From a virus (taxonomy: Duplodnaviria; Heunggongvirae; Uroviricota; Caudoviricetes), in IMG/VR virus record IMGVR_UViG_2529292905_000017, positions 1 through 18,298 of that record: a DNA stretch of 18,298 bases; one strand, written 5' to 3'. Below are positions 3,001-6,000 of the stretch, one piece after another; within the stretch, counting starts at the first letter, position 1; every line of letters begins with the position of its first letter. Position numbers: made by a program.

Positions 3001-6000
3001 TGCTTTTTCCAGATTGGTGATATCCTGCTCCAGAGCGGACAGATTTTCAGCCTGCTTAGCCCTGGCTTCATTGGCCCATTTCAGATCCTGCGCTGCATTA
3101 ATTTTCTGGTGCATCCACTCATAAAGTTCATCATCGGTATAGTCTGGCGCGATGATGACGGGTTCTCGTTTCTGCATGTCGGCTCCTTGTGGTTAGCGTT
3201 GCCTGCTTTTAACCACGTCAGGCGAGGTGGTATCCTCTGAGGGGTCTGTTACTCGAGAGGAAATTGGTTATGAATACAATCAAGTTTTCTTGCCCAGAAT
3301 GTGGTGGCGAAGTCTTTGACACATCCTTTAAGCCGCAGGGCTCTGACAGTTTCGCGGGAGCCATCTGCAAAAATTGTGGTCACCTTGTAACTGAAGATGA
3401 GTCCTCGCAGTTCGATGACGAAATCGTTGACAATATCTTCGGTGCACTCACCAGAGACTTTCTGAAGTAAAGGCGCATACCGCTTAGTTACCGCTCTGAT
3501 AACTCTTACCTGTCCTGCAATGGCGCTGATGTCAATATAAAGCGCCATTGCTGCTTCTTTGCCGATCCCGGGATGCCTTCCATTCTGATGTTTGACTTCG
3601 CCCACTGAGAAACCCTCTGTTTCCCCTTAACGCCGGGGTAGCGGAACAAAAACCTGCTGCATAGTTATTAAAGTTGAACCCTGCCGTCATGTTCATACGC
3701 CTCGGGCTGGCTACTTAACCCCTGACCACTGCCGGGTAACTCGAAGTATTTCCCTGCGTTCTGTGGGGCGGGGTGGGTTGGTATTTTTAGTTTAATAAAC
3801 ATTAAACTTAAGTCAAGTAAAAACTAAACCGCGGGACATAACAAACACAACGCTTTTGATAAAGTCGTTGCGGTTGTTATGTTTCTATTGGTAGTGAAAG
3901 TTAGGGAAACTGGCGTCTTGCGTGGATCACGTTTACTACTTCAACGCTTGATGTTGTTACGCGGTATAGAATTATATAGTTAGGGTGGGCTACAATCTCA
4001 CGCAAGCCAGGTACTCTGTCGCTTGGTGGGTATAAATACGGATGTTCGGATAACGGCAGCACACAACCCCTTAATCGCTGCCATAAGCGTTCAGCCGCAT
4101 CTATGTCGAAACGAGCAATATAACTAGTTATATCATCTAGGTCGGTATCTGCGCTTTCAAGCCATAACACGGGTAACATTTTACTGCTTGCTCCGTTCCT
4201 TGCGCATCTTAGCAAAGCGTTCTGCCATTCTGCGCTCAACTTCGTCATGGGGAATTGCTGGGCGCGGATCTGCAAGGCTCGTTGCTACTTTCGCACGCAG
4301 CCATTCGTTGTAACTGTTTTCTTGTTCAATGGTTTCAAATTCAGAAACCATTGGTGAAAGGGCTCTATTCATGTTTCCTCCGGTTTTATAACTCAGGCGC
4401 GGCGGCATTTTTGCGCCGCAATCCATCTCGCTATGAGATCTTCCATTGATTCTTTTTTCTGCTTTAACTCGCTGATTATCTGGCGTTGCTCATCCTCAGG
4501 GAAGGCTGAAAAAATCTGCAATAATTCCAGTTGATTAGACGTTAACCCTGCATGTGGTGGAGAAACCCCCGGTTGTTCTGCGTATTCCGCATCCAGATAC
4601 CCTTCCGGCATCCCGTATGTTTGCTCTATTCTTCTGGCAGCCTTTTCTCCAAACGAGGCTCTCCCACTCATTAGTTGAGATAGGTAGCTCTTCTCTTTGG
4701 GTGGCAGAGTTTTATCTTTAAACCACTCCTTGAGACGTAAACGGCGAATTTCTTTTTTTGCATGTGGTAATTATCTTTAGTAATCACTAAACAAGCAAAT
4801 ACTTGACTTAATGGTTTATTAAACACTAAACTCGCAAAAAAACACTAAACCGAGGAAGGTATGACATTAAAAGAGTTTATTAAATCATTAAGGGTTGGTG
4901 ATGCTAAGAAATTCGCGGCCAGACTTGGTGTATCGCCATCTTACTTATCGCAAATGGCGTCTGGACGAACAGCTATATCTCCAACCCGCGCCCTTATGAT
5001 CGAATCTGCGACGGAAGGCCAAGTAAGTAGGGCGGAGCTACGACCCCATGATTGGGAGCTTATTTGGCCTGAGTATGCGAGCGGCATTCGTTTGGGGCAA
5101 ACACATGTAGTTCATGCTGAAGGTGATTGTAGTGCATGCTTATCTGATGGAGTTGATTCATGAAAATCAAGCATGAACACATCCGCATGGCGATGAATGT
5201 CTGGGCGCATCCGGACGGCGAAAAAGTACCGGCTGCGAAAATTACCAAAGCGTATTTCGAGCTGGGAATGACGTTCCCGGAACTGTATGACGACAGCCAT
5301 CCGGAAGCCCTGGCCCGTAATACCCAGAAAATTTTCCGTTGGCTGGATAAAGACACCCCTGATGCTGTTGAAAAAATGCAGGCTCTGTTACCGGCGATCG
5401 AAAAGGCGATGCCGCCTTTGCTGGTGGCCCGTATGCGCAGCCACAGTTCTGAATATTACCGTGAGATCGTCGAACGGAGGGATCGGCTGGTGAAGGATGT
5501 CGATGATTTTGTTGCGTCAGCGGTTGTTTTGTATGACCAGATGAATCGCGGCGGCCCGGCAGGGAATGCTGTGGTGATGCACTAAAAGCACGGTGTTCGG
5601 GGGTTTTATGAGCAGCAAGCTTCATGGTCTTGTCTGGGAAGGGTGCGCCTTCACCGGCATGATCTTATCCAGGGTGGCGGTTATGGCCCGTCTTGCAGAC
5701 TACAGCAATGACGAGGGCGTGTCATGGCCTGCCATTGAAACTATCCGGCGTCAGATCGGTGCAAGAAGTGAATCCACAGTGAAATCGGCTATTGCAGAAC
5801 TGGCGAAAGAGGGCTGGCTGACGAAGGAAGAGCGTAAGGTCGGTGGGCGTAATGTAAGCAATATCTATCGGCTTAATGTGGAAAAACTCGAAGCAGCTGC
5901 TGCGGCGGCGCGTGAGTCATATAAACCGAAAAGAAAAATTAGCCCGGCAAAAAATGACCCGTTAACAGTTGACCCGTCAAATATTGCCCCCTCAACGGTT

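Follow-up and report, generated by a model that had tools for sequence, protein, structure and literature searches.

The paaR2-paaA2-parE2 immunity region of a decaying CP-933P-type prophage, with a run of seven A at the start of paaR2

Results

The DNA analysed here (the window) comprises 18,298 nucleotides, positions 1 to 18,298 of the Caudoviricetes record IMGVR_UViG_2529292905_000017 in IMG/VR, and its minus strand carries at 3901-4763 three genes in the same orientation, parE2, paaA2 and paaR2. The final gene of this toxin-antitoxin (TA) module, parE2 (3901..4179, minus strand), encodes a ParE-family toxin of 92 amino acids, and 92/92 residues were identical to crystallised E. coli O157:H7 ParE2 (PDB 5cw7_B/5cze, E 7e-60). 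The protein matched Pfam ParE_toxin PF05016 (E 1.9e-16, 60.9 bits against a cut-off of 23), and RefSeq WP_001303511.1 is the parE2 product at the equivalent place in relatives. Directly upstream lies paaA2 (4181..4372, minus strand), the stop codon of which ends 1 nt ahead of the parE2 ATG. The gene is served by a GGAGG ribosome-binding site of its own, and its product is an antitoxin of 63 amino acids without a DNA-binding domain. Residues 2-63 were 100% identical (62/62) to PDB 3zbe/5cw7, and the protein matched Pfam PaaA2 PF21217 (E 1e-19, 70.7 bits against a cut-off of 27), while the Pfam search gave no helix-turn-helix (HTH) or ribbon-helix-helix match for it. The third gene, paaR2 (4393..4763, minus strand), encodes a CI-analogue repressor of 123 amino acids and is frameshifted as read; residues 3-66 of its in-frame translation were identical to the N-terminal domain of PaaR2 in solved constructs.

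Comparison of window positions 3650-5200 with E. coli O157:H7 strain 2149 showed two differences, a 1-base deletion and one single-nucleotide polymorphism, which gives G67V in PaaR2; either allele at this residue is common. When 5426 complete E. coli genomes were compared, about 590 had the locus on the chromosome, and these share the gene order int, xis, exo, ..., PL, parE2, paaA2, paaR2, ydaS, ydaT and an O-like gene. The paaR2 start region was carried by 0 GTDB species representatives. These results indicated that the window locus is almost certainly paaR2-paaA2-parE2 ('RAE2'), forming the immunity region of a lambdoid prophage of the CP-933P/Sp12 type. As judged from their sequences, the three proteins are PaaR2, PaaA2 and ParE2 themselves rather than mere relatives, and the paaR2-paaA2-parE2-like module which the sequence-only reading had placed on the minus strand was thus borne out.

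The start of paaR2 differed from what that reading had proposed. The true start ATG lies at 4763..4761 and is followed by one C and seven A (4753..4759, minus strand; T7 on the plus strand), where O157:H7 and the other aligned relatives have eight A. The run of seven puts a frameshift at codons 3-4; a single frame encodes residues 3-123, and the 1-base deletion parts it from the frame of the ATG. The open reading frame (ORF) at 4393-4671 matched PaaR2 (PDB 7nkv/8c3k, entered there under the name 'Phage repressor protein CI') only from residue 32 on; position 4671 is Met32, and 31 residues at the beginning of the DNA-binding domain are missing from the ORF. Extended upstream, the same frame reads ...HAKKEIRRLRLKEWFKDKTLPPKEKSYLSQL-MSGRAS..., and with MQ placed before it the product is identical to PaaR2 residues 1-66 of the solved constructs (PDB 7nkv, N-terminal domain). 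The proposed extent of 3901-4671 was therefore correct for the toxin and antitoxin genes and wrong for the end of the regulator gene, the true start of which is 4763; likewise an HTH regulator gene is present as proposed, but, being one base short in the A-run, it is not intact as read.

The ATG-frame ORF has 30 codons (4671-4763), is out of frame and reads MQKKKFAVYVSRSGLKIKLCHPKRRATYLN-stop. Its stop codon overlaps the ATG of Met32 (TAATG, 4673-4669), and reinitiation at Met32 could yield a protein of 92 amino acids, which, by comparison with 434-type repressors, would probably be without the recognition helix. PaaR2 gave no Pfam match at E <= 0.01. At E 1e-6, below the cut-off, its residues 71-119 (window 4393-4550) resembled the C-terminus of DicA (NCBIfam PRK09706).

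The length of the A-run was then compared among public sequences. Of the complete E. coli genomes that carry the locus, 592 in all, 578 had eight A (the exact 81-bp form), 3 had seven A and 11 were otherwise different. All 5 metagenome contigs that matched had eight A and none had seven A or another form, and the 46 matching IMG/VR viral contigs were divided into 42 with eight A and 4 with seven A, without any other form. The 3 complete genomes with seven A are Belgian pig enterotoxigenic E. coli (ETEC) strains with neighbouring accession numbers, in which the NCBI Prokaryotic Genome Annotation Pipeline (PGAP) gives paaR2 an ATT start. For the seven-A allele of E. coli ETEC1732 (L001, 2178-2534), RefSeq/PGAP lists a 'hypothetical protein' of 118 amino acids, implying the ATT start. 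We rejected ATT as a realistic start, since the paaR2 transcript starts at the ATG and has no leader (PMC8630535).

The Met32 ORF was found on 24 contigs, whereas each full-length allele was on about 1000 or more. The NCBI names of this 92-amino-acid ORF derive from O26:H11 and O111:H8 CVM draft genomes, which we take to be 454-sequenced, whereas complete O26 and O111 genomes have eight A. Seven A occurred on at least four paaR2 haplotypes, every one of which is also known with eight A. One contig with seven A (L022) showed another run contraction 80 bp off, and one copy with nine A was found (contig L012, Logan ERR13317903, aligned to window position 4752), so that both -1 and +1 variants exist in public assemblies. 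When the window was aligned with strain fS25a (12.6 kb, 99.8-99.9% identity), only two indels were seen, and both were T-run contractions in runs of at least 7, one being the run in paaR2 and the other T7 to T6 at 196-201 in the integrase gene.

The surroundings of the three genes were those of an immunity region, with divergent ydaS-ydaT, OR and OL repeats, PR, PRM and PL. A PL933P-type leftward promoter (TTGACT-16-TAAACT, 3789..3816, minus strand) lies in a region identical to O157:H7 strain 2149; it is surrounded by OL-type repeats, and a GTTTAATAA/GTTTATTAA palindrome stands at 3790-3800. The divergent control region of 97 bp (4764..4860), which holds PRM933P, PR933P and the OR repeats, is identical to O157:H7. 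The -10 element of PRM933P is GATAAT (4775..4770), with the transcript beginning at the A of the paaR2 ATG, and PR933P (TTGACT-18-TAAACT) is at 4803-4832 on the plus strand, so the module does lie between PL-like and PR-like promoters, as had been proposed. There were 3 copies of CACTAAAC, where chance would give 0.41, and all of them lay within 4785-4850; the published half-site GTTTAGTAA had 9 matches against 2.6 expected, clustered at the leftward and rightward promoter regions.

On the plus strand, ydaS (4861..5163) encodes a Cro analogue of 100 amino acids with the Pfam families YdaS_toxin and HTH_3, and ydaT (5160..5585) encodes a CII analogue of 141 amino acids with Pfam YdaT_toxin. A YdaT operator, TTGATTcatgaaAATCAA (5153..5170, plus strand), matched without a mismatch the published consensus TTGATT-N6-AATCAA (PMC9986795). 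Rightward of ydaT follow an O-like HTH_36 protein gene and then a DnaC/IstB-like gene. The promoters, the operators and the YdaT site of the window sit where the published work puts them. No peptidase-S24/CI-type repressor was found among the ORFs of at least 75 amino acids from integrase to holin, in agreement with the sequence-only reading, which a separate CI-type repressor would have refuted. A second repressor elsewhere in the window was also looked for and not found; the other HTH proteins proved to be only the O-like protein, a DUF1627 protein and an insertion sequence transposase.

The prophage in the window is visibly decaying in several ways. The lambda-type integrase gene int (minus strand, 1-802) has T6 at 196-201, compared with T7 in close relatives, and is frameshifted at about residue 202; its frameshifted ORF terminates at window position 1 and not about 317 bases further on. 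Strains fS25a and 2015C-4498, like all six IMG/VR relatives compared, have 1651 bp that are deleted at 2544/2545 in the window. With this deletion the N-terminal 342 codons of a 3'-5' exonuclease are lost, and so are DUF1482 and dicB, a division inhibitor; the junction showed no obvious microhomology. The DnaC/IstB-like replication gene (6577-7317) has an in-frame stop at codon 65, and since strain fS25a shares the 'internal stop' flag, this defect was probably inherited rather than being a sequencing error.

An IS3-family element of 1.6 kb (8520-10131), with imperfect terminal inverted repeats GGGGTGCGGAC..., carries on the minus strand an rve transposase ORF (8547-9401) and an HTH_Tnp_1 ORF (9368-10090). 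It stands in place of about 1.5 kb of fS25a, the DUF551-to-hokD segment, where hokD is a toxin gene. Further rightward, genes for tRNA-Met(CAT) (tRNA-Ile in the annotation of relatives) and tRNA-Arg(TCT) are found within 13973-14226, downstream of a DUF1133/Q-type antiterminator gene (11738-12301) and between a DNA methyltransferase gene (12874-13923) and a nanS-p-type SASA esterase gene (15719-17587). We take this late-region layout of antiterminator, methyltransferase, tRNAs and nanS-p-type esterase to be Stx-phage-like. Between the tRNA genes and the esterase gene, no ORF of at least 75 amino acids had a family match.

Discussion

The RAE2 locus was studied in prophage CP-933P by Jurenas et al. 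(mBio 2021, PMC8630535), and both the module with its structures and the lambda-like wiring are already in print. In that work PaaR2 was shown experimentally to be the CI analogue, in the cI position, so the prophage repressor role which the sequence-only reading had suggested for the regulator had already been demonstrated for CP-933P, as had the rexAB-equivalent position of the TA pair on the lysogenic transcript; in lambda, too, PL is located past cI-rexA-rexB (PMC8630535). The paaR2 mRNA has its 5' end at the A of the ATG (PRM933P, by 5' RACE), and N-terminal sequencing gave MQKKE. PaaR2 binds the repeats in the 97-bp OR region, with a footprint of about 78 bp of the intergenic 97 bp, and also those at OL, where PL933P and OL1-3 were described. 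Its targets are PR933P and PL933P, which it represses, and PRM933P, which it activates at low level, while YdaS is Cro-like and YdaT is a CII-like activator of a PRE-type promoter. The immunity region is bistable, with two heritable expression states. PaaR2 is without an S24 autocleavage domain or peptidase motif, and it is not SOS-inducible (PMC8630535).

For the TA pair, the same study found that the RAE2 locus stabilises an unstable mini-F plasmid on a par with ccdAB by post-segregational killing, which gives experimental backing to the prophage stabilisation that the sequence-only reading had expected. The toxin ParE2 has the ParE fold; it colocalises with the nucleoid, and its overproduction induces SOS. 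PaaA2, a small, unstable protein without a DNA-binding domain, binds the toxin and is broken down by ClpAP and ClpXP. Transcription of the pair takes place in both expression states, with undetectable SOS induction, and the pair was described as an addiction cassette, loss of the locus being lethal; it was proposed to guard the immunity region from loss or replacement (PMC8630535). For the window, the toxicity of ParE2, its neutralisation by PaaA2 and the repression by PaaR2 are taken from PMC8630535 and the work cited there, on the ground that the proteins are identical. Because window positions 3650-5200 are only two positions off O157:H7, the published RAE2 mechanism should hold for the window locus, except possibly for PaaR2, where the A-run is concerned.

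Several points weigh against a working three-component module in the window. Single-cell work detected no toxin activity in either expression state, and the exact molecular target of ParE2 is not established, gyrase not having been shown as the target (PMC8630535). As read, moreover, the window has no intact paaR2 frame from the leaderless start codon, and because this frame is broken the three-component wiring may not operate in this copy.

A homopolymer error in sequencing or assembly, with a true locus that is wild-type paaR2-paaA2-parE2, is probably the correct explanation. We favour it over a real mutation, itself a possibility of some weight, on the distribution of the form with seven A, because this form is rare, occurs on several haplotypes and is commoner among IMG/VR contigs than among complete genomes, and because a second T-run contraction is present in the integrase gene of the window. 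The metagenome matches uniformly with eight A, the CVM draft origin of the Met32 ORF names, the second contraction in contig L022 and the restriction of the indels relative to fS25a to long runs all point in the same direction. On the other side, genuine slippage mutations likewise strike homopolymers, two A8 runs and several 7-base runs are intact in the window, and in a prophage that is decaying in other ways pseudogenes are expected.

If the seven A are real, paaR2 would be a null allele, and this outcome we hold to be possible, with the artefact the better-placed explanation. The switch would then be locked with YdaS/YdaT on, PL would be derepressed and the RAE2-on population would be lost, like in the published paaR2 stop-codon mutant, which was viable on a plasmid, still expressed the operon reporter and lost only the RAE2-on state (PMC8630535). 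Within the decaying prophage, paaA2-parE2 would remain as an addiction cassette of two genes, still expressed and addictive, because paaA2 has its own ribosome-binding site and the stop mutant kept its operon reporter. Such a pseudogene is consistent with a leaderless mRNA that has no in-frame start, and with a window in which dicB, DUF1482 and the N-terminus of the exonuclease are gone too, just downstream of PL, and which carries the stop codon in the dnaC-like gene, the IS3-family insertion and the frameshifted int. Loss of dicB, a PL-driven division inhibitor, would also make loss of the repressor tolerable. The rarity of the allele and its technology-like distribution argue against a real frameshift.

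The sequence-only reading had allowed for a contribution to exclusion, and a module that chiefly excludes superinfecting phage by abortive infection, like lambda rexAB, rather than acting by addiction, is unlikely. The positional analogy with rexAB speaks for it, but none of PaaR2, PaaA2 and ParE2 (0/3) matched PADLOC as a RexA/RexB-type or catalogued defence protein, the published activity is plasmid stabilisation by post-segregational killing without toxin activation in either state, and PMC8630535 reports no exclusion test. Exclusion was thus left unsupported.

It is quite improbable that the A8 run of the leaderless paaR2 is a slippage hotspot, which would turn the repressor heritably off and on by changes from eight A to seven or nine and back, or give a trickle of it by a -1 slip on A_AAA_AAG. 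If it were so, a mutational layer would lie atop the known epigenetic bistability, with the TA pair meanwhile holding the locus in place. In the ATG frame the run of the window reads A_AAA_AAG in the correct phase, a -1 slip would restore exactly the MQKKEIRR... of wild-type PaaR2, this heptamer ranks among the most shift-prone in E. coli (PMC4066793), forms with seven, eight and nine A are all known, and low PaaR2 already represses PR and activates PRM (PMC8630535). Even so, a real but leaky seven-A allele in the window, supplied with low-dose PaaR2 by ribosomal or RNA polymerase slippage, with the run as a slippage-prone on/off switch, is very unlikely, as heptamers without stimulators reached at most about 10x a 0.055% background in E. 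coli (PMC4066793), the site occupies nucleotides 6-12 of a leaderless mRNA, so that an upstream Shine-Dalgarno stimulator is impossible, and the off-length alleles are rare and error-like. A stimulatory RNA structure 3' of the heptamer was also looked for, and the downstream fold was no better than that of shuffled sequence (z = -0.72). Because bare heptamers are weak and the downstream RNA is unstructured, slippage rescue would be a trickle at best.

The discovery value of the locus is small, the module having been published. Copies with seven A are annotated with an ATT start or as the Met32 ORF, so a truncated 'HTH regulator' is easily misread. All complete genomes among the matches listed give PaaR2 as a 'hypothetical protein', despite its published structure and function. 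If the seven A are true, the window copy would combine a naturally null paaR2 with the absence of dicB from the prophage, and would be a useful test of the role of the TA pair without its repressor.

Compared with CP-933P of E. coli O157:H7 EDL933 and Sp12 of Sakai, the window has the same ParE2 and PaaA2 and, with one A put back, the same PaaR2 N-terminal domain. From PL to ydaT, over 1.55 kb with the same promoters, operators, ydaS and ydaT, it is 2 positions off an O157:H7 genome, the differences being seven rather than eight A in paaR2 and the common G67V allele. The rest of the window prophage is another mosaic, with dicB deleted and the IS3-family element inserted, and the best complete E. 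coli genome covers no more than 81% of the window.

In comparison with lambda (PL - rexB - rexA - cI - PRM/OR/PR - cro - cII - O), the functional slots of the RAE2 region stand in the same order and orientation. Both systems have a leaderless repressor mRNA, a repressor and a Cro analogue competing for shared OR and OL operators, and a CII-type activator of a PRE-type promoter (PMC8630535). However, PaaR2 has no sequence similarity to lambda CI and differs from it in the absence of S24 autocleavage and SOS induction, and it is a functional analogue of lambda CI and the peptidase S24 repressors, outside that family. RAE2 has four 18-bp inverted repeats where lambda has three operators (PMC8630535), and its passenger genes, a ParE-type TA pair, have position alone in common with RexAB.

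With DicA of Qin and RacR-YdaS-YdaT of Rac in E. coli K-12 the module shares a repressor in the cI slot, divergent from ydaS/ydaT homologues, and the leftward operon of relatives includes a division inhibitor gene, dicB or kil. The C-terminal resemblance of PaaR2 to DicA described above suggests a common oligomerisation module. Qin and Rac carry no paaA2-parE2 beside the repressor, and their ydaS/ydaT homologues are only 26-31% identical (PMC8630535). With the canonical two-gene parDE modules of RK2, Caulobacter and Vibrio, finally, the module shares a ParE-fold toxin (weak matches to 3kxe and 6x0a), a small labile antitoxin and plasmid stabilisation, but it differs from them in that PaaA2 has neither a DNA-binding domain nor autoregulation, control being exerted by a separate phage repressor.

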